From the NCBI GenBank assembly GCA_963752595.1, contig CAVVYZ010000009.1, positions 32,001 through 96,000 on the forward strand: a stretch of 64,000 nt of DNA, given 5' to 3'. Position 1 is the first letter of the stretch. Every line of letters starts with the position of its first letter. The notes below the pieces were generated by a model. The model was not told the origin of the DNA. It saw nothing but the letters and a program-made list of their open reading frames with translations, and made no database searches. The translations under genes were made by a program, and so were the position numbers. This DNA comes from an uncultured delta proteobacterium. GTDB taxonomy: Bacteria; Desulfobacterota; Desulfomonilia; UBA1062. Positions 4,192 through 44,535 of this stretch are shown piece after piece.

Positions 4192-4572
4192 CTAATCCTT
4201 TGCATTCCCTGTTTCATCAGGTACTGCCACGATCCCCCATACCCCGAAGCAGACCATGCCGACCGTGATCCCTTTGAATGCCCAGAAGCAGCAGAACGTG
4301 ACTGAGCCCATGGAATAGAGCTCTTCAGCCTGGGGGATGGTTATGACACCCTGATAGAGCAGGATGCCCAGCAGAAGGCCGAGAATGCTTCCGATACACA
4401 CCCCTGCAGCAAGCCGATGGAAAAGTATCCGGGGGAATACGGCCTCCGGTTTGTAACGGGCACCCGGCATCGGGTCTCTGTGATGGCGCATCATCTCTTC
4501 AGCGAGACCCGTCATGCCTCCCAGGGGGGGATAAGGGACCAGTGCTTCCTGTCCGTCCGGCGTGTTATTCAT
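4192..4572 (-). CDS. Small hypothetical membrane protein (2 TM), third gene of the CWB2-like operon
   Basis: ATG overlaps the upstream gene's stop (ATGA); two hydrophobic segments; Met/His-rich N-terminus. Confidence 0.6.
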   Translation of the reverse strand: MNNTPDGQEALVPYPPLGGMTGLAEEMMRHHRDPMPGARYKPEAVFPRILFHRLAAGVCIGSILGLLLGILLYQGVITIPQAEELYSMGSVTFCCFWAFKGITVGMVCFGVWGIVAVPDETGNAKD

Positions 4573-5840
4573 TTTATCTTCTCCTTGCTTTTCAGCTCCT
4601 GCTCTGTTTCGGTCCGATTTTCTCTGCTTTCGAGCAGCTGGTCGAGCCCGGCCTGGATTCTCCAGCTGATGGTGCCATCTCCACCGACGATCCAGCCGTG
4701 GTTCAGGCGCTGCTGTCCCGGGAGAGCGGGATAAGGCCTGATGACCCGTAAAAAGTCCGCAACCGGCACAGGGATATCATCGCGGTCTACCACCAGCACT
4801 GCCGCATGCTTCCCCATATGGCTCAAGGTTGCTGCAGGCAGCACGTTCTGCCAGCCTCCCGGGCCGTTTGGGTTCACACAAATGACATTATGCCCAGCTT
4901 CGTTCATATCCCAGCCGAAAGACCTGGCGCCTTCCCATATCCATGCACCCCAATCCCGGCCTGTGTCGTGAAAGCCTGCAAAGCGGGCACTGATCTCCGG
5001 GAGGGAACCGCCCGGTATCCTGATCAAATGGCCATACGATCCGAGCTCATGGGCGACATGTTCCGGGATCACCGTCCCATCCCCGAAAAGGTAGAGCCAC
5101 GGTCCGTTCATACGCCGTTTCAGGATTCTCTTCGTCTCCTCCGGGATTTCCCCGTTCGTTACAAAGGCGAGCCCGTCACCCATGTGGGCATTCCAGAAAA
5201 CACCCGGTAAGGAGGGCATCAGGTTGTCGAGATTGGCTATGACGACCCCATTCCTGTGGTCGCCGTGCATGGTCGAGGTCCAGTTATCCAGCTTTTCCGA
5301 AAGCGCTGCGGCATCGGGCGCCTTCAGCACCCTTATATTAAGCCCAAGGCTTCGAACCTCTTTACGCACTTCATCCCCGATGGTCCCCACCAGGTAGGCC
5401 TGCGTATTCCCGTCCATCATCACCCCTTCCGGCTTGAGGCGTATGATCTCCGAGCGGGTCAGGGCCGGGATGACATCCTCTTCCACATAGAGAAGCGGGG
5501 CATTGAGGGGAAAGTGCTGCACCCTGCTCGCGGCGAGCATTGCCTCGGCAAGGTTGTTCCGGTTCACCAGCACCACAGCACCTGGTGAGTTCGCCTCTTC
5601 GTTTGCCGGGTACATGAGCTGTGAAACGGCAACTGCCGTTTCAACCGGATCATCCGATCCGATGCGGCCCGTATTCACCGTGACAAGCCCCTGATCGACC
5701 GGGAGCGGCATGGAGGCACCCAGCTCCTGTTCAGGCTTCAGGACGGCCTTCTCATAGGAGATTATGCCTGCGAGGATTGCCATCGAGGCCAATGCTGTGC
5801 CGGACAGAATCAGGAGAGTCGATGTGTATCGCCAATGCAT
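4569..5840 (-). CDS. Membrane-anchored protein with cell wall-binding repeat 2 (CWB2)-like repeats
   Basis: Probable start MHWRYTST at 5840 (the ORF-track extension overlaps the upstream gene); N-terminal TM; repeats such as GRIGSDDPVETAVAVSQ...VVLVN...LNAPLLYV. Confidence 0.65.
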   Translation of the reverse strand: MHWRYTSTLLILSGTALASMAILAGIISYEKAVLKPEQELGASMPLPVDQGLVTVNTGRIGSDDPVETAVAVSQLMYPANEEANSPGAVVLVNRNNLAEAMLAASRVQHFPLNAPLLYVEEDVIPALTRSEIIRLKPEGVMMDGNTQAYLVGTIGDEVRKEVRSLGLNIRVLKAPDAAALSEKLDNWTSTMHGDHRNGVVIANLDNLMPSLPGVFWNAHMGDGLAFVTNGEIPEETKRILKRRMNGPWLYLFGDGTVIPEHVAHELGSYGHLIRIPGGSLPEISARFAGFHDTGRDWGAWIWEGARSFGWDMNEAGHNVICVNPNGPGGWQNVLPAATLSHMGKHAAVLVVDRDDIPVPVADFLRVIRPYPALPGQQRLNHGWIVGGDGTISWRIQAGLDQLLESRENRTETEQELKSKEKIK

Positions 5841-5851
5841 CTTTAATCTTC

Positions 5852-7609
5852 CTATATGAGCCCTGACTTGCGGCGGCTGCGGACCATAAGGCAATTGAAG
5901 GGCCATGCAACGAGAAACGCAAGAAAGACGGTGAAGAACATGACGCCGAACCAGAGAATGTTTTTCTCCCGGGGCATCATGGGGAGATTCCACATCATGA
6001 GCCACCACATGGCAGGAAACATGGCAAGCGATGCGGCAGCCATGGAAACAAGGATGACGGGCAACGCCCTGGTAAGCGCCTGTGCATACGTCTGCCCCTG
6101 GAACATGGAGAGCATGGGGGTCTGGTAGAGGGGCCATGCAATGAGCACCGCGACGACGAAATTTGCTCCCATGACGAGCACCATCGGCGACCCAAGCCAG
6201 AAGAACGGGCCCCGGCCGATTACCATGGGCAATCCGAAGAATGAGAGCACGAACCCAGTTGCCACCATGATCTGGGCCCCTATGCCGACGCTTCCGGCCG
6301 CAGCAGCCATCCCCTGGAGCCATAATGGCCTGTCCCATGCCGCCATTCCGTTGTGGTCGATTACGGGAACCCGGTATGCCAGCCGGTAGAAGAAGATCCC
6401 GAACGGCCCCAAGGCTATGGTGAGGAGCGGCCAAGACAACCTCATAACCCAGTGCATCCCGGGCAGGAACCTGGCGGCATGGAAGATGATCCACAGACTT
6501 GAGGCAAACCCCAGGGCGATCCAGGCAGAGGCGAGCATGTCCATGCCCGAAACTCCGGGGCCTTTCATCCGGTAAGGCCCGATTTCGACGGCATAGTCGG
6601 CCTGGCTCTGTGCCGTAAACGAGACCGCAGCCTCGTCACCGAGTATCCAGATATGATGGAAGGGCCCTTCCGACGGAGTCGTCCAGAAGGCCGGCCGCTG
6701 GCTCCAGAGATAGTTGTTTACAACCTGCGGGAGCTCGTGCTCATCTGTCCAGAGCAGAGGCCCGGGTTTTCCCCTCCGTGCGAGATTCGCGCTCAGGAGT
6801 GCGGTCGCAGGGTCGTTTGCCCTCGCAAGGGTAAATCCCCGGTAGCCGGTGAGCGTGCCGGAGTTGAAATCCCAACCGAAAAGGTCGTCGGGATTAAAGA
6901 ACCCGGCAAAAGCAATTGATGCCTGGGCCGGGGTTTTTCCGGATATGTGCTTCATCCCTTTTACACGCACATCCCCGAGGGCGTACAAAGGGATTTCCTG
7001 GGGAGCCTGCTTCGAATCGAACACGATAAGGTCTCCGCTGTACGCAGCCCAAGGCGCAGCAAGAAGTGCCGTAGCCGGCTCACGCTCATCCACCATGAGG
7101 GCATGGAGAGGGGGTGCATTCGCTTTTTCCAGGATGGGAAGGATATCATCCGGTCCGATATGGAGTGCACTTTGCTTTGCAAAGGCTTTATTAACCGCCA
7201 GAACCTTTTTCCCGCCAAGAAAGCGGCTGCCGCCTGGTTTGAGGCGATCAATCTCTTCCTGCACATTACCGGCTGAGGGGAGCAGAACTGCATTCAGCGG
7301 CCTCAGAAGGCTCGCTGCAGCCAGTCCTCCCTGCCAGTCTTCAGGTGCATAGAGAATGACAAGATCCGGGGTATTCGCCGGCTCGGTGGCAGGATAGACT
7401 GCGCGGCTCACTGCAGCTGCAACCTCGCCAAGATCCTTTCCGGTGAACCTGGTGGTATTCTTGGTGTTCAAGTGCATCCTCTCCTGGCCGGAGCCTTCCG
7501 GATGGATGATGTTTCTGTACGGCACGGCCAGTATTCCGGCCGTCAGGATCGCCGCAACGAGTACGGCAACGGTTGTTCCGGTGATTTTTACCCATAAAGG
7601 ATCTTTCAT
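5852..7609 (-). CDS. CWB2-like repeat protein fused to C-terminal DUF4396-like multi-TM domain
   Basis: N-terminal TM; TTRFTGKDLGEVAAAVS...LNAVLL repeats; Met/Trp-rich C-terminal helices ending FLVAWPFNCLMVRSRRKSGLI. Confidence 0.7.
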   Translation of the reverse strand: MKDPLWVKITGTTVAVLVAAILTAGILAVPYRNIIHPEGSGQERMHLNTKNTTRFTGKDLGEVAAAVSRAVYPATEPANTPDLVILYAPEDWQGGLAAASLLRPLNAVLLPSAGNVQEEIDRLKPGGSRFLGGKKVLAVNKAFAKQSALHIGPDDILPILEKANAPPLHALMVDEREPATALLAAPWAAYSGDLIVFDSKQAPQEIPLYALGDVRVKGMKHISGKTPAQASIAFAGFFNPDDLFGWDFNSGTLTGYRGFTLARANDPATALLSANLARRGKPGPLLWTDEHELPQVVNNYLWSQRPAFWTTPSEGPFHHIWILGDEAAVSFTAQSQADYAVEIGPYRMKGPGVSGMDMLASAWIALGFASSLWIIFHAARFLPGMHWVMRLSWPLLTIALGPFGIFFYRLAYRVPVIDHNGMAAWDRPLWLQGMAAAAGSVGIGAQIMVATGFVLSFFGLPMVIGRGPFFWLGSPMVLVMGANFVVAVLIAWPLYQTPMLSMFQGQTYAQALTRALPVILVSMAAASLAMFPAMWWLMMWNLPMMPREKNILWFGVMFFTVFLAFLVAWPFNCLMVRSRRKSGLI

Positions 7610-8780: not shown

Positions 8781-8893
8781 ACATATTATTGTTATGGTAT
8801 AATTTAACATTAATATTCTAAAATATAATTATGTCTCTATCAATGGATGATTTCGTATCACAAAATATACGTTAGGCATTGAGGAGGGAAATC

Positions 8894-10165
8894 ATGAGGA
8901 AAACCTTTTTCAGAAATGTAGGTACGTTCTTTCTCGTTATTATCACCCTGTTCGCAAGTTCAGCCTATACTTATGCGGCGACAGGGCGCCAGTTGGCAGA
9001 GAGCGCAATAGCGGCATTAAAGGCATCAGCACCCACGACTACGACACGGAATGTCCCGACGTTCAACTGGTCGTGGTTTGAGCTCAACTACTCCGACGAG
9101 ACATACCCCCTGACCGTTGATTTTGTCGGCAGCAACTTCCAGTGTGCCCAGAAGGTCGTCTACCTGCTGCCGGGAGGCGGGGTGAATTTCAGGTCGAGCT
9201 TCTTCACGCCGGTCGATGACAACCTTGCCCAATTCTTCCGCAAGGCAGGATATCTCGTTATAGGAATAACCCCCAGGGAAGACAATGTACCATCAGCGCC
9301 TTCCTATGGCTGCATGGCTGATTGGGGCCTGCATAAACATACGAGCGATATCAGGAAGATTATCGGGATAGTCCAGGCAAAGCTCCGTCTGCCTTACAGG
9401 GTAGTCGGCCACTCATTCGGCGCAGCCTATGCCATCGATTATGCAGGATATCCTGTATGCGGCCTCGAAAAGATAATCGCGCTCGACATCTACAGCTTCT
9501 CACCCGATGATGCCGAGGATATCGATAATTCAGACATTTCCTATACTGCCTTCCTGGACCTGATGGGACAGGGCGAATATGCGGATTCCTCCTATTCGGA
9601 TATCAAATCCCTGATGCTCATATCCATGCTCTTCCCGGACATCGATTCCGGGGAATCCCGTGAAGGCCTCGGCTTGCCCGGCAATTTCACCTTCGAGGGA
9701 CTGCTGTACTTCTCCATGATTTTCAGTGCAGACCTCCCGGGCATCCATACCCCGCTCACCGGTCTTGCAGGTGACTGGCCGCTCGTACAGAGCTATGCAG
9801 CAGGCGAATACGCCTTTGCGGAAAACCCGCAGAATGACCAGTACCGCTTAACCTGTTCCCGCATGTCCACCTTAAGGGAAGCAAGCTTCAAGGTCGGAAG
9901 CGGCCTGGTTCCCAGTGCCCTGTACCGGGATTTCTTTGCTGTGAATGCCAATAACGGTGAATGCTCTATCAACTGGGCAGGGATCAATAAGCCGGTCTTA
10001 TGGGTGAATACTGAGCTCGGATACGGCAGCAACATGTACGGTGCAACCTTGATCCAGAATTCCGGGAACAGCAATGTACTCGTCGCGGTTGTACCGGGAT
10101 ACGGCCATCTGGACATCCTTTCGGGCAGGAATGCAAAGGCGGATGTCTGGGGTTGGTTTCTTTAA
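8894..10165 (+). CDS. Secreted alpha/beta hydrolase
   Basis: Signal peptide, GHSFG nucleophile elbow, C-terminal GYGHLD His; SD GAGGAGG. Confidence 0.75.
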   Translation: MRKTFFRNVGTFFLVIITLFASSAYTYAATGRQLAESAIAALKASAPTTTTRNVPTFNWSWFELNYSDETYPLTVDFVGSNFQCAQKVVYLLPGGGVNFRSSFFTPVDDNLAQFFRKAGYLVIGITPREDNVPSAPSYGCMADWGLHKHTSDIRKIIGIVQAKLRLPYRVVGHSFGAAYAIDYAGYPVCGLEKIIALDIYSFSPDDAEDIDNSDISYTAFLDLMGQGEYADSSYSDIKSLMLISMLFPDIDSGESREGLGLPGNFTFEGLLYFSMIFSADLPGIHTPLTGLAGDWPLVQSYAAGEYAFAENPQNDQYRLTCSRMSTLREASFKVGSGLVPSALYRDFFAVNANNGECSINWAGINKPVLWVNTELGYGSNMYGATLIQNSGNSNVLVAVVPGYGHLDILSGRNAKADVWGWFL

Positions 10166-21710: not shown

Positions 21711-22904
21711 ATGAATAGAGGAAGTATGCCCCGAGTGGCAGTGAACGGATATGGCGTTATCGGCAAACGGGTGGCTGACGCAATAGCGCTTCAGGACGAC
21801 ATGGAGCTCGCAGGGGTAGCCGATGTGTCGAGCGATTACCGCATCCGGGTAGCAGTGGAGCGGGGATACCCGGTATATGCGTCAACCCCTGAGAAACGCC
21901 CGGAGATGGAAGAGGCAAACATACCGGTCGAAGGAACGCTCGATGACCTCCTGAAACAAGCGGATATCGTTGTGGACTGCACCCCCAAGGGGATCGGGGC
22001 GCGGAACAAGGACAAGTACAAGGAGGCGGGAGTAAAAGCCATATTCCAGGGTGGAGAAAAACACTCCCTCGCCGGATATTCGTTCGTTGCACAGGTTAAT
22101 TATGCGGGTGCACTGAACAGGGATTTCGCACGGGTCGTATCATGCAATACAACCGCACTCTGCAGGATTTCCCATGCGCTTCACAAGAAGGGATGGGTCT
22201 ACCGGGTCCGGGCAGTACTCCTCCGCCGGGCGACCGACCCATGGGAATCCCACGATAACGGAATGATCAACACGGCGATTCCCGAGACCAAAGTCCCGAG
22301 CCACCAGGGGCCTGATGCAAAGACGGTCATCCCGGATCTCGATATCACCACAATGGCGGGAGCGGGCCCGTACAACTTGAGCCACCTCCATTATGCCATG
22401 GTCGAAACGAAAAAGAACATTACCATTGAAGAGCTGCGCCATGCCCTCTGGGAAGAGCCGAGGATCGCCTTTGTCAGTTCAGGCAACGGCCTCGTTGCCC
22501 TGAATGCGGTCATCGAGCTCATGCGAGACATGAGGCGTCCGCGGAACGACATGTGGGAAGTGGCGGTCTGGGAAGATGCCCTGTCATCGGATAACCGCGA
22601 AGTGTACATGACGTTCCAGGTCCATAACGAAGCTATCGTTGTTCCCGAGAGTGTCGATGCCGTCCGGTCGCTCACCGGCATCGAGAAAGATTGGCAGACA
22701 TCGGTGGAAAAAACGAACCTGGCCCTGGGCGTAACGAAGAGCTTTTTCCCCCATACCATCCCCGAGGAAGCGATCCATGCAGAGATGGGCAGAAGGCTCA
22801 GGAAAGGAGAACGGGGCCATCAGAAAGAAGGCTTCAAGGGAGCAGAAGAGCCGACCGGACACGTGTTTTCCAAAGAGCAGCGAAATTACTGGGTGGGCAG
22901 ATAG
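21711..22904 (+). CDS. gap: Type II (archaeal-type) phosphorylating glyceraldehyde-3-phosphate dehydrogenase
   Basis: VAVNGYGVIGKRVADA, VVDCTPKGIG, FQGGEK, catalytic VVSCNTT, PSHQGPD, VHNEAIVVPE. Confidence 0.92.
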   Translation: MNRGSMPRVAVNGYGVIGKRVADAIALQDDMELAGVADVSSDYRIRVAVERGYPVYASTPEKRPEMEEANIPVEGTLDDLLKQADIVVDCTPKGIGARNKDKYKEAGVKAIFQGGEKHSLAGYSFVAQVNYAGALNRDFARVVSCNTTALCRISHALHKKGWVYRVRAVLLRRATDPWESHDNGMINTAIPETKVPSHQGPDAKTVIPDLDITTMAGAGPYNLSHLHYAMVETKKNITIEELRHALWEEPRIAFVSSGNGLVALNAVIELMRDMRRPRNDMWEVAVWEDALSSDNREVYMTFQVHNEAIVVPESVDAVRSLTGIEKDWQTSVEKTNLALGVTKSFFPHTIPEEAIHAEMGRRLRKGERGHQKEGFKGAEEPTGHVFSKEQRNYWVGR

Positions 22905-26146: not shown

Positions 26147-27663
26147 ATGAAGAGATCATTTATCCAGCCCCCTTCACCCGAGACGCACCCGTATGTAAGG
26201 CTGCTTGCCGAACAGGCATTCTCACGTGCAGCAGGCGCACCGCTCATTCCGGGAAACAGTGTCCGCCTCCTCAAAGATGCCGGCGAGAATTACCCTGCAT
26301 GGCTCGATGCAATGCGCTCCGCAAAGAAGAGCATCCACTTCGAAAGCTACATCATTTATGACGACGAGATCGGCGAGATGTTTGCCGAGGTGATGACTGC
26401 CAAGGCACAGCAAGGAGTGAAGGTCAGGCTGATCTACGACTGGCTGGGCGCGCTGGGAAGACTTCCCGCCGTTTCTGGAAAGAACTCATCGATGCAGGCG
26501 TGGACGTGCGCTGCTTCAATCCGCCCCATATCGGCCACCCTCTGAGCTGGCTGAGCAGAGACCACCGCAAGATGATTGCAGTCGACGGCAAAGTCGGTTT
26601 TGTCACGGGTCTGTGCGTCGGCAGAATGTGGGCGGGTGGTCCGGAGCCGGCAATCGAGCCGTGGCGCGATACGGGCATCAGGGTGGAAGGACCGGCAGTA
26701 GCCGATATCGAACACTCCTTTGCCGACGTGTGGTCTACTATGGGGCCTCCCCTTCCGGAGGAAGAGATCCCTGCCCTGAGCACCTTACATCCGGCAGGCG
26801 ACATAACCTTACGGGTAGTGGCCAGCATCCCGAATACCGCAGGGCTCTTCCGCCTGGACCAGCTCATCGCTGCAGTGGCCCGCCAGTCTCTCTGGCTCAC
26901 GGATGCATATTTCCTCGGGCTGACCCCGTATGTACAGGCGCTCAGGGCTGCTGCGAGAGACGGCGTCGATGTCAGGCTTCTCGTTCCCGGGACGACCGAC
27001 ATCCCGGTCTTAAGAGCGGTTTCCCGGGCCGGATTCCAGCCCCTTCTGGAAGCCGGGGTCAGGATCTTCGAATGGAACGGCCCCATGCTCCACGCAAAGA
27101 CTGCGGTGGCCGACAGCCGGTGGGCCAGGATCGGATCCAGCAATCTGAATATCTCCAGCTGGCTCGGCAATTACGAGCTCGATATTGCCGTGGAGGATGA
27201 GGGATTCGCCCGGGCCATGGAAAGAATGTACCTCGAAGACCTGGCACATTCGACGGAGATCGTGCTGAGCAGTCGCCATGTCGTATGCCCTGCACAGAGC
27301 CGCCCAAAGGTGTCCCGCAGGATGAAAGACAGGAGAAAAGGAAGCATCGGGCGGGCCGGAGCCGGGTTCATCAGGGCAGGAAGGGTCGTGGAGGCAGCCA
27401 TAAGCAACCGCCGGACTCTGGGTCCTGCCGAGGCGAAAATCATGCTCATCGCAAGCATGGTTCTCCTGTTCTTTGCCGGCATAGCACTGCTCTTGCCGAG
27501 GCTGCTCTCTGTCCCGTTCGCAATTTTCAGCGGCTGGCTTGCCATAGCACTGCTCATCAAGGCATACCGGACACGGTCGCGAGGGGAAAAGGCACCCGGC
27601 ACGAAACGGGATGCCGTGAAAAACTCATCTGCCGACTGTACCCCTTCCAGCCCCTTAAAATGA
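26147..27663 (+). CDS. cls: Cardiolipin synthase (phospholipase D family), one frameshift at ~26460
   Basis: Two HKD motifs ([16 protein letters not shown]); ORFs 26147-26545 and 26500-27663 join if one A is restored. Confidence 0.88.
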
Positions 27664-30679: not shown

Positions 30680-30726
30680 TTGAATTCTGCAGGCTCATCG
30701 CGTATATTAACTGGTAATACCACCAG
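30680..30726 (+). promoter_or_regulatory. Sigma70 promoter with FadR-type operator over the start site
   Basis: TTGAAT-N17-TATATT followed by TGGTAATACCA (30712-30722), matching the TGGT-N3-ACCA FadR-subfamily consensus. Confidence 0.65.
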
Positions 30727-30742
30727 CCATATGGAGACGATC

Positions 30743-31461
30743 ATGAACAGCATGCTGAAACCGCTCAAAGCAGAGAGTCTCAAGGAAGTATTCATCTCGC
30801 GGTTTGAAGACCTGATACTTACCGGAAAGCTCGCCATCGGCCAGAGGCTCCCGCCAGAGCGGGAGCTGGCGGTCCAGCTCGGGGTGAGCAGGCCCGTGGT
30901 GCACGAAGGGCTTCTTGACCTGTCAGTTAAGGGCCTCGTTACCATGAAGCCCAGGGCGGGAACCGTGGTGAACGACTACCGCAAGGAAGGTTCACTCTTC
31001 ATGCTGGAATCCATCTTCAATTTCCGGCGGGGGAACCTCGATCCGGAGCTCATGCGGAGCCTTCTCGAGGTGAGACTGCTCATGGAGGTCGAAACCGCGC
31101 GGCTCGCATCCCGGCACCGCAGCAAGGAACAGGTGAGTGCTTTCCAGGACATTCTCGCACAGGGAAGAAGTAACCGGCAGGCATGATATCGACGGCCTTT
31201 CGGGTCTGGATTTCGAGCTTCACCAGCTGATCGCGCTGGCTTCGGGCAATCTCGTCTATCCGTTGCTTATCAACTCGTTCAAGCCGGTATACACGACCAT
31301 GACCTCAACCTTCTTTTCCGACGCTGCCGTGGTGCCCGAACGTGCATTCTTTCCATAAAAAGCTGGTCGCCGCGATCGAGAGCAAGGATGAGAAAAAGGC
31401 GGCTCGGATAATGACTGAACTGCTTGCCCACGGCGAGCAGCACCTGGTAAGACTGATATGA
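30743..31461 (+). CDS. GntR/FadR-family transcriptional regulator (frameshifts at ~31165 and ~31345)
   Basis: RLPPERELAVQLGVSRPVVHEGL HTH; FCD domain (EVRLLME, DFELH, HKKLVAAI) spread over three frames. Confidence 0.88.
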
Positions 31462-31481
31462 GAGGAAAGAGGAGGTAGGCC

Positions 31482-34003
31482 ATGAGCACGGCCGGATGCA
31501 TTGCAGGAGAAACATTCGGTCAAGGAACCCAAGAACCTCTCGCCGCGCATACAGTGGCTGAGGGATTATTATTTCAAGGGCACCCAGAGGGCGTGGAACA
31601 ACGAGTTCACGGCCTGGAGCACGGGTACGGACTGGGATATCCTCTTCGATGAGATGACCTTCTACATCGTTCCCGAAACATATGCCTTCCTCCAGACCTT
31701 CCGATCCTCCATGCAGCAGGCTGCCCGGAATGTCCAGCTCCACAACGAATTCTGGAAGTGGAGCCTGCCCGAGAGAAAGGCATGGTTCATCAAAGAGGTC
31801 GATGCTGAACTGCGTCCCGCAGGAGATCCTTCCCGGCGACCTCATTGCGGGCGGCCGGTTCAATGTCCAGACTTCCAAATGCTGGACAAAGAAAGAGGCC
31901 GATACGCGCGACAAGCTCATCTACGGCAAAAACGGCGCGCGCGCAGCCATGAAATGGTTCCACGACCACGGCTACGGCAATTCGGGCGCAACCTCGGGGC
32001 ACCTCATCCCCGGCTATGAGCGGGTATTGAAGATCGGATGGAAAGGGATCTACGAGGACATCAGGTCGCATTACGAATCCATGGACACAAAAGGCAAGAA
32101 GGGGCCCAAAGGCGGCCAGCTCCGGGCCATGATGACCGCTGCAACCATGGCCAAGGACCTCGCCTGGAGGTATGCAAGGCTCTGCGAGCGGCTCGGCCAG
32201 GACGAATGGGACGATGTCCGCAAGGACGAGCTCAGCCGGATGGCGAAAAACCTCAAGAGAGTCCCGTGGGAGCCTGCCCGGACGTTCTGGGAGGCGGTGC
32301 AGTCGCTGTGGATCACCCACATGCTCGTCATGAGCGACGAGAATTATCCCGGCCCGGGGGTATCCTTCGGCCGGATCGACCAGTATCTCCTGCCCTACTG
32401 GGAACTTTCGATCTCCGAAGGCATGGACAGGGACTTCGGAAAAGAAATCCTGAAATGTTTCTGGCTCCACGCCAACACGGCCTATGACGCCATGATTCGC
32501 ATCGGCGGAAACCAGGGCATCACGGCCGGCTACGGCCAGCTGGTTACTTTTTCGGGTATGGGTGCGGGCGGCCGCGACATGACCGGCGATCTCACATACG
32601 CCATGCTGGAGGTCGTGGACGAGCTCTCGCCCATCCTGGAGCCCAAACCCAATGTCAGACTCCACAGGGGAAGTCCCGAGAAGCTCATGGACAAGGTAGT
32701 GGACATGATCTCGACGAGCCAGGGATCGCCCTTCCTCCTCAACTTCGACGAGCGGTCCATGGCCGGCATGATGGTGGAGGCAAGAAAGGCCAAGGTGGAG
32801 CATCTCATCCACGAAGACACCGTATTCGACTACGCACCCGTGGGCTGCCTGGAGAATACCATGGCAGGCAACGACCGCTCCGGCACGGTGGACAACAACC
32901 TCAACCTGCTCAAGGCAGTCGAGCTTGCCCTGAATGACGGGAGGGATTTCCACGATTTCCTTGACCCCATCACCGGCAAGCTGGAAAAGGTCAGGCAAGC
33001 CGGGCCTTCTACCGGAAACGCCGCACGGTTCAGGATCTGGGATGATTTCTGGAAAGCCTATGTCCAGCAGACAAGGTTCATCATCAAGCGGTGCGTGGAG
33101 CTCTATGAGAAATCCGAGTCCATCCGGGCGAGATTCTGCCCCACGCCGTACGTCTCCTGCCTTGTCAAGGGATGCGCCGAAAAAGGCATCGATGTAACCC
33201 AGGGTGGCGCAGAGCTCAACTTCACCACGCTCGAGGCCGTGACCTTTGCCACGACCGTGGACAGCCTGCTCGCCATAAAAAGCCTCGTCTACGAAAGGAA
33301 AGAGTGCACGATGAAAAAATTCATCCAGGCACTGAAGGCAAACTGGCAGGGGCATGAGGCATTGCGGGCAAAAGCTACCTTCAGGGCCCCCAAGTACGGC
33401 CGGGACGATGACGAGGCCGACGAGATGGCGCATATGGTCATGAAGCTCTGGTGCGAGGAGACCTGGAAGCACAAGACCTCATCCACGCTCCGGCAGTTCA
33501 GGCCGGGCATGCTCAGCTGGAATTACTGGGTAGGCGACGGGTTTATCCTGCCGGCAAGCCCGGACGGACGGCCCAAGGGAAGGTTCCTGTCAAATGCCAT
33601 CTGCCCGGTGAGCGGTGCGGACATCAACGGCCCCACGGCAAACATGAATTCCGTCGGCAAGGCCCTCGGCGGAAAGGCTGCAAACGGCAAGGGCGACTGG
33701 AAAGAGTTCCTCAACTGCCTCCCGAACGGGGCGAGCCACACCATCTCCATCAACCCGTCCATGCTGAAGAGCAGGGAGCAGAAGGAAAAGTTCAAAGCCT
33801 TCATCAGGGGCTGCATCGAAAACGGCGGAACGTCGCTGCAGATCAACATGGTGGATGCGGCCATGCTCAAAGATGCGCAAGAGAGGCCCGAGGAATACCG
33901 TTCGCTCCTGGTGCGGATCACCGGATACAACGCCTACTTCACGAGCATCGGCCATGAGCTCCAGAACGAGGTTATCGCGAGGATCAGCCATGAATCGTGC
34001 TAA
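31482..34003 (+). CDS. Glycyl radical enzyme of unknown function (frameshifts at ~31495 and ~31800)
   Basis: PARTFWEAVQ, SFGRIDQYL, single-Cys loop VGCLE, PKYG, C-terminal LLVRITGYNAYF glycyl radical motif; SD GGAGGT. Confidence 0.92.
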
Positions 34004-35021
34004 AGGCGACCGCACCGTGAAAAGCGAGGGAGGGACTTTCCCGAGAGGGACGATCTTGAGGATTCAGCGGATGTCCATGGAAGACGGCCCCGGCATCAGG
34101 AGCACGGTCTTTTTCAAAGGCTGTCCATTACGGTGCGTGTGGTGCCACAACCCGGAGAGCATCTCTGTCTCCCCGGAGATTCACTGGGAGGGGCAGAAGT
34201 GCACGGGATGCCTGGGATGCCTGCAGGCCTGCCCCGAACACGCCCTTTCCTCCGGTGAAAACGGCATTGCCGTAGAACGGTCGAAATGCACGGGCTGTCT
34301 CGCCTGCACCGAGGCCTGCCCCGCTACGGCCCTGGAGGCTTATGGGAATACCATGACCACGTCCGGGATCATACGGGAGGTCGTGAAGGACAGGGTGTAC
34401 TATGAGAAGTCCGGCGGCGGGGTAACCCTTTCCGGGGGAGAGCCTTCGCTGCAGCCGGCATTTGCCCGGGCTCTCCTGAAGGAGCTCAAGGAGCAGGGCA
34501 TTCACACGGCGCTCGATACCTGCGGCCAGTGCCGGTGGGATACCCTGGAGCATCTCCTGCCGTATACGGATCTCGTGCTTTTTGACGTCAAGATGATCGC
34601 CCCTGAGCCCCATAAGGAATATACCGGCGTCACGAGCACCCTGATCCTGGAAAACCTGCTCAAGCTCTCCGAGTTCATGGAGAACACCGGCATGCCGGCA
34701 AATCTCTGGATCCGCACCCCGGTCATCCCGAACCATACGGCGAATCCGGCAAACATCCGGGCCATCGGAACCTTCATCAGGGAAAAGCTCATCGGTCAGA
34801 TCGCCAGGTGGGACCTCTGTGCATTCAACAGGCTGTGCACCCACAAGTACGAGGGGCTCGGGATCGAATGGGCCTGCAGGGATCTGGAGCTCGTTGCAGA
34901 AGACGAGATGGAGCGACTCGCCGGCGTTGCGCGCAAGGTCCTGGGGAAAGCGGACATCGTCTTTACGAGCGGCCAGTTACAGAAGCCGCGCTTAAGCCTG
35001 ATCACCGGGGGCAAGGGCTGA
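33990..35021 (+). CDS. Glycyl-radical enzyme activating enzyme (radical SAM with ferredoxin insert)
   Basis: DGPGIRSTVFFKGCPLRCVWCHNPE, two CxxCxxCxxxC motifs, GGVTLSGGEP. Confidence 0.95.
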   Translation: MNRAKGDRTVKSEGGTFPRGTILRIQRMSMEDGPGIRSTVFFKGCPLRCVWCHNPESISVSPEIHWEGQKCTGCLGCLQACPEHALSSGENGIAVERSKCTGCLACTEACPATALEAYGNTMTTSGIIREVVKDRVYYEKSGGGVTLSGGEPSLQPAFARALLKELKEQGIHTALDTCGQCRWDTLEHLLPYTDLVLFDVKMIAPEPHKEYTGVTSTLILENLLKLSEFMENTGMPANLWIRTPVIPNHTANPANIRAIGTFIREKLIGQIARWDLCAFNRLCTHKYEGLGIEWACRDLELVAEDEMERLAGVARKVLGKADIVFTSGQLQKPRLSLITGGKG

Positions 35022-35050
35022 CAGATAACGGGAGGTATTCTTTGGCAAGG

Positions 35051-35899
35051 ATGAAAAAAACAGTGACCAGGTTCGATGAAAAGGACCTGCCGGAATTCGA
35101 GCCCGAGGCCAAGGTGGGCCTCATCGCCACGGTAAGCCCAGACGGCCTTCCTCACATCACACTGATCACGGCGCTGCAGGCAAAGACACCCGAAACGCTC
35201 ATCTGGGGGCAGTTCTCCGAGGGCTTGAGCAAGCAGAACGTGAGAACGAACCCCAAGACGGGCTTCCTCATCATGACGCTGTCCCGGAGCCTCTGGCGCG
35301 GAAAGGCGCTGTGGACCAACTGCGAGACGCACGGTACGGATTACATGATGTTCAATACCAAGCCCATGTTCCGCTACAACGCATATTTCGGGATACACAC
35401 CGTGCACTACATGAACCTTATCGAAACCTATGGAAGGGAAAGCCTGCCCATAGGGAAAATCGTCCTCTCCACACTGCTGACCAGGATGGCGAAATCGCCT
35501 GCACGATCCACGAAAGAAAAGCGTATCCTGAAACCATGGGCTGAAAGATTGTTCAACCGGCTCGACAGCCTGAAATTCCTCTCCATGGTCGATGCCGGCG
35601 GGTTCCCGATCATCATCCCCCTCATCCAGTGCCAGGCCCCGGACAGCACGAGGCTCGCCTTTTCGCCGCGGGCGTACAGGGAGGAGTTCGGGATTCTGAA
35701 ACCCGGTACGAGCGTCGCCGTATTCGGCCTCACCCTGGACATGGAGGATGTACTCGTCCGGGGAATCTTCCGCGGGTTTGAGACATACCGGAATACGAAA
35801 CTGGGCATCATAGACATCGACTGGGTGTACAATTCCATGCCGCCCAAGCACGGCCGGATCTATCCGGAGATTGAGCTTACACCCGTTACCGAGTTCTGA
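35051..35899 (+). CDS. Pyridoxamine 5'-phosphate oxidase-like (split-barrel flavin-binding) protein, two tandem domains
   Basis: LIATVSPDGLPH...SKQNVRTNPK, and a second degenerate repeat FLSMVDAGGFP. Confidence 0.7.
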   Translation: MKKTVTRFDEKDLPEFEPEAKVGLIATVSPDGLPHITLITALQAKTPETLIWGQFSEGLSKQNVRTNPKTGFLIMTLSRSLWRGKALWTNCETHGTDYMMFNTKPMFRYNAYFGIHTVHYMNLIETYGRESLPIGKIVLSTLLTRMAKSPARSTKEKRILKPWAERLFNRLDSLKFLSMVDAGGFPIIIPLIQCQAPDSTRLAFSPRAYREEFGILKPGTSVAVFGLTLDMEDVLVRGIFRGFETYRNTKLGIIDIDWVYNSMPPKHGRIYPEIELTPVTEF

Positions 35900-35989: not shown

Positions 35990-37001
35990 CTACCGGATGA
36001 CTTCACCATATGCTTTTGAAAAGGGCTTGAGCTCCTGAAAATCCATGACGGTCGACATTGCCAGATTCTCGGCGCCGAACCCCAGCTCACGGGCGGATGC
36101 CACCGGGTTGAGCCCTCCGAACAGGATCATGCCCACCTTGTTGACATCCACCGGCACCTGGCATACGGGTTCGCCTATCCTGCCCACGGACAGCACGCCC
36201 CGGATTCCCACATCCGAGAGCATATCCACGATCTCGATGGCGCTCTCCCGGCAGATGCCCGTCACTTCGCGGAAATTTGCGAGTATTTTCCCTTCACCCC
36301 TTGTGATGACATCGCTCACAGAGGTCATTTTCGCGCTGATAAAGGCCTCGGAAGGGTCAAGGGACGTGCCGGAATAGTGTATGAGCTCCACGAACCGTAC
36401 CGGCTTCTTGTCCTGCATCTGGAGGATGCCGCCGAACTTCGAGTCCATCGGTATTCCCCGTTTCAGCAGCACGCCGTTGAGAACGATGCTGCAGATCGTC
36501 GCAAACCCGACCTGACCTTCGGGCACGTTCATATCCCCCATGAAATTACCTGCACGGGAGATGCACACGAGGTCGCTGATGCAGAGCCCTGCTTCAAATG
36601 CCTGCTTCATGGCATCAAGGGCATCCGGAAATATCGTTTCCGGGAAAAAAAGAAATATTGACCGGGACCAGACCTTTCCGGCTCTCGAGGTCAAACGTGG
36701 TACGGTATGAGAGCACCTCGATGCGGGAGATGGCATAACCGACCTTGTCCTGCACCCGGGCGTTCCGCAGCTCTTCGATGCCTTTATCGGTGATGACCCT
36801 GCCGTCCCGCCTCCCCACGAGCTCGGTAAGGAGGAGCTCATCCATGTACTGCAGGTGGTAGCGTACAGCGCGCTCGCTCAGGCTGATCCCGTAATCCTTC
36901 ATCTTCCGGGCGATTATCCGCGCGCCGAGAGGCTGCCCGGCCTGATTCAGGACCCTTAAGATGACCATGCTCTTTCTCTCGATATCCTCATGGGAGAACA
37001 T
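35990..37001 (-). CDS. nrpR: NrpR-family (DUF128) transcriptional repressor, frameshift in a T-run at ~36645
   Basis: wHTH PLGARIIA...LSERAVRYHL...ITDKG; NRD domain ATICSIVLNGVLLKRGIP, GTSLDPSE, LANFRE, GGLNPV. Confidence 0.85.
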
Positions 37002-37329
37002 ACACATTCCTTTAAGCGTTGTTTTTTTATAGTACCGTTTCTTCAAAAAGCCATACGTTTCCTTTGTTCTCTCTGTCAATGGAAAGGAACTGTTGCCTCA
37101 AACGGGCTTGCGAAAGGCTCAACCCTTCGGTTTACAAAAAGTGCCTGATCTTACTCCCATGGCATCTTTCAAGGGCTTCACACAGGTTTTGCACATGATT
37201 TGTGGTTGTTTGACACATGCATGCATACGAATTGTGCTACGTTTTTCCCATTACTGTGCGGGTTTTATTGAAACCGGGTTCTGCTGAAATATTGTTTTAT
37301 ATAGACTGATTTTAAAATAGGGGGACGGC

Positions 37330-42122: not shown

Positions 42123-44535
42123 ATGACGACACGATTCCGTTTATCCGGCAGAGTCTTCATTCTTGCCGTATGCCTGCTCTTCGTAACCTTCTGCAAGGCC
42201 TCCGCACTGGAGCACCTGGAATGCGGCGGTATCTCCATCTACTACTCGGACGGCGAGGAAGAGATCGGCCTCCGGCTTCAGCAGAAGACGCCCGAGATCC
42301 TCTCCTACCTGGAAGAACGGGGGATTGTGCTCTCGTTTCCCCTCCATGTGATCGGGCCTGCCATCGGTTGCCCATCGCTTTTTCGGCGAGGCGGTCTCCC
42401 CGAATATTCTCCTGCCGCCCTGGATAACCGAGGGTGTATGCAGGATCCTCTGGGCCGGATATTCCGGATCGCCGATCGATGACCCGTTCAGCCGGGCACT
42501 GTTTTGCACCTCTATGCCTAAGGATATCTCGGATGTGAGCAATCACCCCGGCAAGTGGCCCGGATACTACAGCTACCGGATATACGGCATCCCTTTTGTC
42601 TCGTGGCTGGATTCCCGCTACGGCTGGGGGAAAATCATGGAATTCTTCACTCTCCATGGAAGAGGCATCCTTCCCATCGAGATCGACACCAAGGCAAAGA
42701 AGGCCTTCGGAAAGACATGGCCCGGCCTCTGGGCTGATTGCATCCAAGGGATGCCTTCCTCCTGGGACAGCAGCCCGGGCAAGGTTGATGAAAATCCCTG
42801 CCGCAAGCAGAAGGAAACCCCACAACAGGCTGCGGAGAATTTTCTGATTGAAGGCTACTGGCCCGATCCTTTTATCTACTGGAATTCATATGGGATATAT
42901 CCCGGCAGGATGAGCTTTCAGGGGCACGGCAGGTATGGGTTCGTGGACCCGGATGGTATCTTGTGGCTTTCCGAATACTTCGGTGAAGAGTCATTACATG
43001 TCACGGGCCATTGGAAAGGAATTGCGATCAACCCAAGCAAAAGCCACGTCTGGGACCCCGCTCCGGGCGGTATTGCCGTGAGCCGCGAGGGGTCAAGGCC
43101 CTGCCTGGTTTTTCTTTGTGCGGAAGAGAAACCCCCTCTTACCAGGATAACAGCCGGTCGCATTATCCCTGCTCCGCCAGAAGCTCTCCAGCTGTCGGGC
43201 CCGGTCGTGGACAGTAAAGGCCGGATAGCAGTATCTGCAAACGTGGGCGGGAACTGGGATATCTGGATGTATGACACCGGGTGGAAGAGGATCACCGCTT
43301 CTCCCAGCATTGAGATGGACCCCTGGTGGATCGGCAGGAGTCTTGTTTTTGCATCCAATATTTCAGGCATATTCCAGATACATAACGCTGACATGTCGCA
43401 AGTGACCAAATCCGAGCTAGGGGCCATGCTGCCCAGGAACGGCACATACCTTAGCCTGAAGAATTCCGGGTGGGCCGTAGAACGCTTTCAGGAGCAGTTG
43501 CCTTATGTGAGTCTTCCCGAGGTCGGAGCAACCGGCAGCGAGGTACTGCACACTCGATCGGATGCGCAGCCGTATTCTCCCTGGCCGAGCATCCTGCCTG
43601 ATTTCATGGCCCCCGACCTCTACTTGGGCCCCTCCGATCTCCAGGCAGGCCTTGTCACCTGGGGCAGGGATGTGAGTGATGATTACTCCATGAGGGCCGG
43701 GTTCCGGTATTCCTTTGCTCTTGATTATCTCTCATTCCAGGCAAGTACCTGCATCAAGGGTATCGGTCCGGCTTATACCCGGTACCCCCTTTCCTATGAT
43801 CCTGAAAACTCACCGGAGACGGAAGAATCGAGAAATGAGGCATCCATCTCTTACAGCCCATCCTGGCTCGGCGGCCTCACCCTAGCTCTCAACAGGCTTT
43901 CTTACGAGCCCCTTGAATCCGGAGGGCCTACCGACAGTGAGTCGTGGGGCGGCATCACCTTCAGCAAGCAGTTCTCCTCCATCAGCCCGAGCCTTACTGC
44001 CGAGGTCTTTTCCGGAGGTCGCACGTCCCTATTCAGCGCTTTCCGCTTCGTCTACGGGTCCGGCGTTATTTTCACCTCCGATATCCAGGCAGGCAAGACC
44101 TGGGGAGACACCGTGCCGGGGCATGGGACATTCCGGGTGGGCGGGGATACCGGTGAAGGATACTTCACCCGGCGGGCCTCACGGCTCTTCCCTTTACGTG
44201 GATTCGCACCGAATATCCTTGAAGCGGATCAGGCTTTCACCACAAGCCTTGAAATGTATTATCCGCTCGCAGATCTCCAGATGGGTCACAAGACATTGCC
44301 GCTTTTCTTCCACACGCTCTCTCTCGGGACTTTTATCGATGCAGGAGTCTGCTCTGAAAAGATAACCGGGGATCAATTCATGGCGGGAGCCGGGTTCGAG
44401 CTCATCACCTCGATGGAAATCGCCTGGGGCACCTTTTCGGCATTCAAGATGGGCATTGCCTGGCCTGTGGCACAGCCGGATTACCTTGATGAAAGAGGCC
44501 CTGTCCTCGTGCTCCAGATCGGAAGGCCTCTGTAA
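42123..44535 (+). pseudogene. Large envelope protein (peptidase-like N-terminus, TolB/PD40-like propeller, C-terminal beta-barrel), disrupted at ~42353
   Basis: Signal peptide ORF 42123 shifts frame after PLHVI into GLPSVAHRFFG...PPWITEG; GNWDIW/EMDPWW propeller motifs; FPLRGF and FIDAG barrel motifs. Confidence 0.55.

Follow-up and report, generated by a model that had tools for sequence, protein, structure and literature searches.

We analysed a 64,000-nucleotide stretch of the genome of an uncultured delta proteobacterium (GenBank assembly GCA_963752595.1, contig CAVVYZ010000009.1; the window, below), which harbours a glycyl radical enzyme (GRE) operon on its + strand. An initial annotation had read at positions 30680-35899 a promoter/operator, a FadR-type regulator, a GRE of ~840 amino acids (aa), a ferredoxin-insert activase and a tandem split-barrel protein (SB), and the five elements operator, regulator, GRE, activase and SB are all found there in this order. 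The features are as follows, with GRE residues numbered after the intact relative P0001.

30680..30708, + strand: sigma-70-like promoter match, TTGAAT-17-TATATT (alone not above chance)
30712..30722, + strand: FadR-type operator TGGT-AAT-ACCA, just 3' of the -10 box (conserved upstream motif)
30743..31461, + strand: GntR/FadR-subfamily regulator, ~240 aa (extra bases near 31160 and 31340 in the assembly)
31482..34003, + strand: GRE, 839 aa, ATG at 31482 to TAA at 34003 (extra bases near 31498 and 31800)
31554..31800, + strand: aromatic-rich N-terminal extension of the GRE, about residues 25-105 (common to the whole clade, including a 42%-identical sister group)
Key GRE residues, + strand: His173 at 32000-32002; Cys455 at 32846-32848; Glu457; Asp470 at 32891-32893; Trp679 at 33518-33520; Gly814 at 33923-33925
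33990..35021, + strand: radical-SAM GRE activating enzyme with a two-cluster ferredoxin insert (TIGR02494 over cut-off; Pfam)
35042..35899, + strand: SB, a tandem FMN-binding-type split-barrel (PNPOx_N) protein of 282-285 aa, starting at TTG 35042 or ATG 35051 (obligate partner)

The activase scores 328 bits on TIGR02494 (cut-off 174), in agreement with its annotation. The annotated promoter/operator held only in part. The sigma-70-like match alone is what chance would supply (1 found against 2.2 expected), whereas the operator TGGT-N3-ACCA is kept in 30 of 41 regulator-upstream regions compared to 1.2% of control windows. The extended operator motif has a single match in the host genome, namely the 30712-30722 site. 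Its position just after the -10 box suggests repression, and it is likely the predicted site of an autoregulated repressor.

The four extra bases are unpaired in comparison with relative L005 and lie inside 700 bp of the regulator and the GRE, as would be expected if the operon were dead in the host strain. However, contigs 97-100% identical to the window, obtained from other samples (four runs of one study), lack the extra bases at 31160, 31498 and 31799, the site near 31340 being outside their coverage. Frameshifts are also frequent throughout the host assembly, affecting 8 of 29 gene bins tested compared to 27 of 616 in loci of other genomes, with nrpR, cardiolipin synthase and glpK among the affected host genes. 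Within the window, nrpR (35990-37079) and cardiolipin synthase (26147-27663) are each broken by a single-base indel missing from L005. The GRE gene measures 2,522 bases including the two extra ones, and their removal leaves 839 codons, the length of the 93%-identical relative P0001; identity of the protein to an intact relative remains at 92-94%. With three of these bases missing from near-identical contigs of other samples, and with frameshifts so common in the assembly, the four frameshifts are very probably assembly errors and the GRE gene is very probably intact. A truly inactivated operon, against which the initial annotation had itself warned, is therefore very unlikely.

A tandem split-barrel protein as partner of the enzyme

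Among 107 examined loci, 105 hold the GRE and 96 have SB downstream; the other nine stop no more than 1,521 bases from the GRE, which leaves SB in 96 of 96 loci long enough to hold it. SB is likewise found downstream in 11 of 11 sister-clade loci, as opposed to none of 69 loci of other GREs. In an additional set of 20 fetched loci it is present in 18 of the 19 seen, the exception ending at a contig edge. It is carried by 22 of 24 genomes of the host's family and by 0 of 16 from the other family of the same class. In seven loci, plus three more in the additional set, SB directly follows the GRE with no activase between. SB is therefore the defining, obligate partner of the GRE and is linked to it more tightly than the activase, since it stays where the activase has moved away. 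The initial annotation passed over both this obligate linkage and the glycerolipid clues given below.

The cassettes in which SB follows the GRE without an activase are L006, L008, L060, L067, L200-L202 and L234-L236. In four of five such genomes checked, an activase 51-61% identical to those of sister cassettes is encoded elsewhere, with no GRE hit in the fetched flank.

SB matches PF01243 at an E-value of 2e-5, just under the gathering score, and is a true tandem as annotated, its halves aligning by hhalign at 96% (E 2e-9). In a fold search with the predicted model (predicted local distance difference test, pLDDT, of 91), which tested residues 6-137 well and left the second half to rest on hhalign, the first half matched Swol_0183 (3IN6, Z 14.1), HupZ, LDB0262 (2HTD) and the Desulfovibrio FMN-binding protein (Z 11.6), with Z of 11.6-14.1 and a root-mean-square deviation of 2.5-4.2 over 113-129 residues. 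The PF01243 match, the Z of 14 and the homologous halves place SB in the split-barrel fold. SB differs from these proteins in carrying two barrels in one chain, in sharing only 10-18% identity with them, and in a second half without the S-K motif; the first half keeps G-x-S-K, which we take to be a phosphate-type motif. Searches with SB gave no match in plasmids, and only unnamed or PNPOx clusters in the ESM Atlas. The split-barrel fold does not imply FMN binding (PMC11602992).

GREs that travel with a dedicated extra protein are represented by the multisubunit enzymes 4-hydroxyphenylacetate decarboxylase (HPAD), BSS, MASS and limonenylsuccinate synthase. The accessory subunits described in the accessible text of PMC13450708 are small HiPIP-like/Fe-S or rubredoxin-like Fe proteins, and none is a 280-aa tandem split barrel. 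The lss operon of limonenylsuccinate synthase is, however, described as encoding an unexplained PNPOx-like protein, LssP (PMC12583861), for which the supplements of that paper gave no hit. This precedent limits the novelty of SB as a GRE partner.

A separate clade of PFL-like glycyl radical enzymes

The GRE contains the PF02901 and PF01228 domains and has the features of enzymes like pyruvate formate-lyase (PFL): a 10-stranded barrel with a Cys loop, a C-terminal Gly loop, and a dedicated radical-SAM activase. All motifs picked out by the initial annotation are present, namely the Cys of the single-Cys GCLE loop (32846-32848), the Gly of RITGY (33923-33925), and the strands SDENYPGPG, NQGITAGYGQ and SWNYW. 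Most of their key residues are invariant in 66 relatives (Glu286, Tyr288, Gly290, Gly292, Gly350 and the Ser, Trp, Asn and Tyr of SWNY); less strict positions are Pro291, kept in 61 of the 66, and Tyr349, which alternates between Tyr and Phe. The Cys and Glu of GCLE are invariant in all 66, consistent with the motif of GRE 1,2-eliminases and isomerases, of which CxE is the mark (PMC13450708). The N-terminal extension is indeed rich in aromatic residues (23% Phe, Trp and Tyr, compared to 9% in the rest of the protein).

The 120 best relatives listed are 70-93% identical to the window GRE and nearly all are 834-842 aa long. Relatives are encoded by 531 stretches of GTDB genomes, 80 of which were used for locus analysis; the matches listed include Desulfobacterota, Spirochaetota, Chloroflexota, Bacillota and other phyla. 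Clustering at 50% gave one main cluster and a few sisters at 33-50%, followed by a drop to about 30%. In a midpoint-rooted FastTree phylogeny of 51 sequences, with Escherichia coli YbiW and PflD as the sole characterised GREs included, the family, its sister group and inactive derivatives are grouped together by a long branch with full support. Identity to every solved GRE is about 30%, and this includes Archaeoglobus fulgidus PFL2 (2F3O; 30%), which matches best both in sequence (E 4e-88) and in fold (Z 39.9) and whose function is itself debated (PMC13450708). In our literature search, for which subscription papers were mostly out of reach, we found no publication on this clade or on a GRE with a tandem split-barrel partner.

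Curated family models gave the same picture. The GRE scores 334-335 bits on the HypD model NF043068 (cut-off 1100), 309-316 bits on the CutC model TIGR04394 (cut-off 1050), 349-369 bits on the C-S lyases IslA/IseG/HpsG and HpfG (cut-off 1000), and 166-230 bits on the HPAD and IAD decarboxylase models (cut-offs 1100-1150). HypD, CutC and the C-S lyases resemble it in the eliminase-type CxE loop, with NCBIfam hits at E < 1e-90, but the scores are far below the cut-offs of 1000-1100, and specific residues differ as well. CutC has Asp at the beta-1 site, where the window GRE has His, and the two-Arg-plus-Gln sulfonate anchor of the C-S lyases reads Ala169, His173 and Gly675. Set against the strand sites given for IslA in PMC8473560, Arg189 and Arg678 are replaced by Ala and Gly, and Phe682 by Trp679. 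PFL itself is set apart by its Cys-Cys pair instead of a single Cys and by a TIGR01255 score of 83 bits (cut-off 994). For the X-succinate synthases (BSS/MASS), no small-subunit genes were found at the loci, and the BssD-type activase model TIGR04003 gives 211 bits (cut-off 496). The examined neighbourhoods hold no conserved gene for a small Fe-S subunit of HPAD type; also absent with the GRE, as annotated, are microcompartment, dehydrogenase and P5C-reductase genes. The GRE thus belongs to a separate clade of uncharacterised PFL-like GREs outside every named family tested, a set from which the PhdB-type decarboxylase (PAD) was left out, and the initial view of an uncharacterised enzyme stands.

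Other GREs were observed around the clade. P0242, P0245, P0247, P0253 and P0260, full-length members found at three separate positions of the tree, retain the N-terminal extension but are missing the catalytic Cys loop, the Gly loop or both, and may be pseudo-enzymes. An inactive GRE paralogue fell in PFL-like clusters of the ESM Atlas. A second, unrelated GRE of 789-814 aa without an activase of its own adjoins the cassette in L001 (12473-14842), L004, L007, L021, L023, L025, L042, L043, L188, L225 and L240, and may share the cassette activase. The host encodes three more uncharacterised GREs (C1:74082-77057, C13:95470-97944 and C15:~159400-163300, the last of them frameshifted), and two of the three carry an additional N-terminal domain.

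The predicted GRE model (pLDDT 91.7) is closest in fold to PFL2, glycerol dehydratase, HypD and propanediol dehydratase (Z 39-40, 26-30% identity), with decarboxylases and succinate synthases lower (Z 31-36; HPAD 33 compared to 39.6 for glycerol dehydratase). Active-site residues were mapped by alignment onto glycerol dehydratase 1r8w, with the sister protein P0244 as intermediate; among solved structures, P0244 is closest to glycerol dehydratase (E 1e-128). His173, Cys455, Glu457 and Asp470, invariant in 66 of 66 relatives, correspond to His164, Cys433, Glu435 and Asp447, whereas His281, Ser282, Tyr640 and Ser642 are changed to Pro291, Gly292, Leu677 and Trp679. We take His281, Ser282 and Tyr640 to be the glycerol ligands of glycerol dehydratase, and the role of Asp447 is likewise our assumption. 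In that enzyme Glu435 is the base and His164 the acid, and the CxE enzymes YbiW and PflD cleave a ring C-O bond in this manner (PMC13450708). Judged by these alignments, the active site would combine a diol-binding acid/base set with an otherwise less polar pocket.

The closest characterised systems share part of this arrangement. The B12-independent glycerol dehydratase (1R8W/1R9D) and 1,2-propanediol dehydratase (5I2A/5I2G, 9RCO) are alike in fold (Z 39.6 and 39.0), single-Cys CxE loop, beta-1 His, beta-6 Asp and ferredoxin-insert activase. They differ in sequence (27-28% identity), in the four substituted positions, in lacking the rebuilt aromatic N-terminus, and in an operon without the obligate split-barrel partner and the FadR-type regulator. 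YbiW, PflD (8ID7, 8ID0) and HplG share the CxE loop and the beta-1 His and provide a precedent for radical C-O-C cleavage beside a carbinol; they are 25-27% identical, sit on a separate tree branch, and are unlike the window system in their phosphotransferase system (PTS) or aldolase genes and at the His281 site, which is Pro here.

Glycerolipid context and candidate reaction

The effector domain of the regulator, taken alone, has as its best solved match the acyl-CoA-binding FadR (E 5e-8, compared to 0.38 for PdhR); the cut-off of 189 of the acyl-CoA-responsive FadR equivalog is not reached by the regulators, which score 66-92 bits. Its closest paralogue in the host heads an operon of a glpD-like gene followed by an alkyl-DHAP-synthase-like gene. 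Co-occurrence was counted in 161 genomes of the host's phylum, 20 of which carry SB; in 14 of the 16 carriers fetched a clade GRE adjoins SB, and the other two end at contig edges. Glycerol kinase is present in 18 of the 19 carriers other than the host, whose copy is frameshifted, compared to 26 of 141 non-carriers, and an alkyl-DHAP-synthase homolog in 11 of 20 compared to 3 of 141. In Chloroflexota the latter is found in 4 of 8 carriers compared to 2 of 193. Neighbouring genes include glpK, which adjoins the cassette in unrelated lineages (L053-L058, L087-L089/L240 and L096), an FGGY kinase with an alkyl-DHAP-synthase homolog (L070), a lysophospholipase-like hydrolase (L089) and fatty-acyl ligases (L041, L047, L223 and L224).

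A glpD-like dehydrogenase with an alkyl-DHAP-synthase homolog (E 7e-70 to 2UUU), often with an FGGY kinase and sometimes under a FadR paralogue, recurs as a set of its own (L181:3937-8148, which is host contig C1; L256:7512-12473; L257, L258, L261 and L185) and resembles a bacterial route for the salvage or catabolism of alkylglycerols. In L096, where the surrounding genes of the contig struck us as archaeal, a geranylgeranyl-reductase-family gene and glycerol kinase come after a sister-clade cassette.

We postulate, with a probability of about 0.42, that GRE, activase and SB together form a C-O lyase whose substrate is a vicinal diol derived from lipids, with the glycerol backbone of an ether lipid as the likeliest candidate. 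C-O cleavage is suggested because the diol-dehydratase His/Cys/Glu/Asp set is kept while the other polar sites have become Pro, Gly, Leu and Trp, and because PFL2 and HypD, along with the glycerol and propanediol dehydratases, head the list of fold matches. A lipid substrate is suggested by the FadR-like effector domain, by the co-occurrence with glycerol kinase and alkyl-DHAP-synthase, and by the glycerol and lipid genes next to the cassette. In such a reaction the activase would install the radical on Gly814, and the Cys455 thiyl radical would take a hydrogen from the carbinol carbon of the glycerol unit. Glu457 would deprotonate the hydroxyl of this carbinol, while His173, with Asp470, would protonate the neighbouring oxygen, which would depart as water or fatty alcohol and give an aldehyde or ketone, either 3-alkoxypropanal or hydroxyacetone plus an alcohol. 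SB might bind the enzyme and supply it with the hydrophobic substrate or, using FMN, reduce a reactive enal formed in the reaction, and the regulator could de-repress the operon upon build-up of a long-chain acyl-CoA-like ligand.

A narrower and more speculative proposal is that GRE and SB constitute a two-component radical etherase freeing fatty alcohols from glycerol ether lipids without oxygen; we hold it to be rather unlikely. On a bacterial or archaeal dialkyl glycerol ether, hydrogen abstraction at the free CH2OH followed by loss of the sn-2 alkoxide would exactly match the regiochemistry of diol dehydratases, and the 3-alkoxypropanal could then shed its second alcohol to give acrolein, to be reduced by a flavin partner.

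Several observations weigh against a lipid-derived substrate. NCBIfam ranks NanR slightly above FadR in five of five regulators tested, all far below cut-off. For the Bacillota class that was examined, the alkyl-DHAP-synthase link does not hold (1 of 30 carriers compared to 8 of 119; the carriers are counted as clade-type hits, one of them partial). Glycerol kinase in that class (25 of 30 compared to 46 of 119) was given little weight because it is common across the lineage holding most carriers. In the host's phylum the generic lipid marker SCP2 is enriched too (15 of 20 compared to 40 of 141), so that co-occurrence may reflect only a lipid-scavenging lifestyle, and the counts include kin and are not independent. 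Most neighbourhoods are unrelated, with an FGGY-family kinase within 8 kb in 7 of the 80 GTDB loci. Glycerol kinase is only an indirect clue, because the proposed reactions do not themselves yield glycerol. More generally, GRE substrates are hard to predict from sequence (PMC8473560).

Alternative reactions

Much of the same evidence would suit a divergent B12-independent dehydratase that turns free glycerol into 3-hydroxypropanal, forming a reductive branch beside a glpK/glpD oxidative branch, with the partner reducing or detoxifying the aldehyde or acrolein. The relationship of P0244 to glycerol dehydratase, the kept His/Cys/Glu/Asp set and the glycerol kinase that co-occurs and in several lineages adjoins the cassette all fit, as do aldehyde:ferredoxin oxidoreductase and Fe-alcohol dehydrogenase genes downstream in L012, L033 and L036 and a lactate-type transporter of the major facilitator superfamily in L053 and L056-L058. 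The three presumed glycerol ligands, however, are all replaced by non-polar residues, and identity is only 27%. Moreover, known glycerol dehydratases need no split-barrel partner as far as the accessible text of PMC13450708 goes, and the glycerol facilitator is not enriched in carriers (3 of 20 compared to 18 of 141), a weak test because glycerol diffuses. We consider free glycerol an unlikely substrate. Regulators of the NanR/PdhR type sense small carboxylates, and the ranking of NanR could point to a different small polar compound as the substrate of a 1,2-eliminase or isomerase. Candidates would be an amino-diol, cleaved at its C-N bond, a sphingoid base, an anhydro-polyol, or a head group or osmolyte linked to glycerol. 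The CxE motif and beta-1 His are common to HypD, HplG and YbiW-type enzymes (PMC13450708), and the invariant Glu286, Asn458, Arg465, Glu584 and Asn680 could bind polar groups. What makes this distinctly unlikely is that the cassette has no conserved transporter, aldolase, kinase or reductase, that the beta-2 site, His or Asp in those enzymes, is Pro here, and that the lipid-leaning regulator and co-occurrence would go unexplained.

A redox role for SB would lead to a different chemistry, in which a flavin partner exchanges electrons with the radical intermediate, as in reductive dehydroxylation or an oxidative ether cleavage to aldehyde and glycerol, or donates electrons to the activase. SB does resemble the FMN-binding Swol_0183 and Desulfovibrio proteins and carries the presumed phosphate-type G-x-S-K motif; glycerol as a product would explain glpK directly, and next to the active-site strand sits the invariant Trp/Tyr cluster SWNY. 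SB staying with the GRE where the activase gene stands elsewhere speaks against a donor specific to the activase. There is, furthermore, no second catalytic Cys, oxidation of the substrate radical would use up the glycyl radical, and the closest SB folds include the non-flavin HupZ, in line with a fold that need not bind FMN (PMC11602992). We regard a redox-coupled enzyme as improbable. The initial annotation had left the choice between an eliminase and a decarboxylase, and it is the eliminase half that we favour. An arylacetate-type decarboxylase would agree with the GCLE spacing, which fits Cys503/Glu505 of HPAD (PMC13450708), and with the aromatic residues near the site. Yet the HPAD and IAD scores are the lowest of the non-PFL GRE families, the fold rank is lower, the small Fe-S subunit gene is absent and the dehydratase His and Asp are kept, which makes a decarboxylase highly improbable.

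The genes flanking the operon (RluA pseudouridine synthase, U32 peptidase, nrpR, B12 radical SAM and nitroreductase) are conserved in close kin only and lie outside the unit. Elsewhere in the window, a divergent GAPDH-like protein is encoded at 21711-22901, with weak Gp_dh_C and DapB_N hits, and the open reading frames at 4572-6494, 8879-10162 and 42514-44532 (641, 428 and 673 aa) have no Pfam hit at E 1e-5.

The operon thus represents a large, tightly conserved GRE clade beyond the characterised classes, with a type of partner absent from the GRE accessory list in the accessible text of a 2026 review (PMC13450708). Hundreds of clade proteins are labelled pyruvate formate-lyase or hydroxyproline dehydratase in databases, labels that the family cut-offs do not support. 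Should the substrate be lipid-derived, the C-O lyase that we postulate would offer a testable enzyme for oxygen-free attack on glycerolipid backbones, including the ether lipids used as geochemical biomarkers. A radical etherase, if that is what GRE and SB form, would supply an enzyme so far missing for the anaerobic recycling, in sediments and digesters, of ether membrane lipids.

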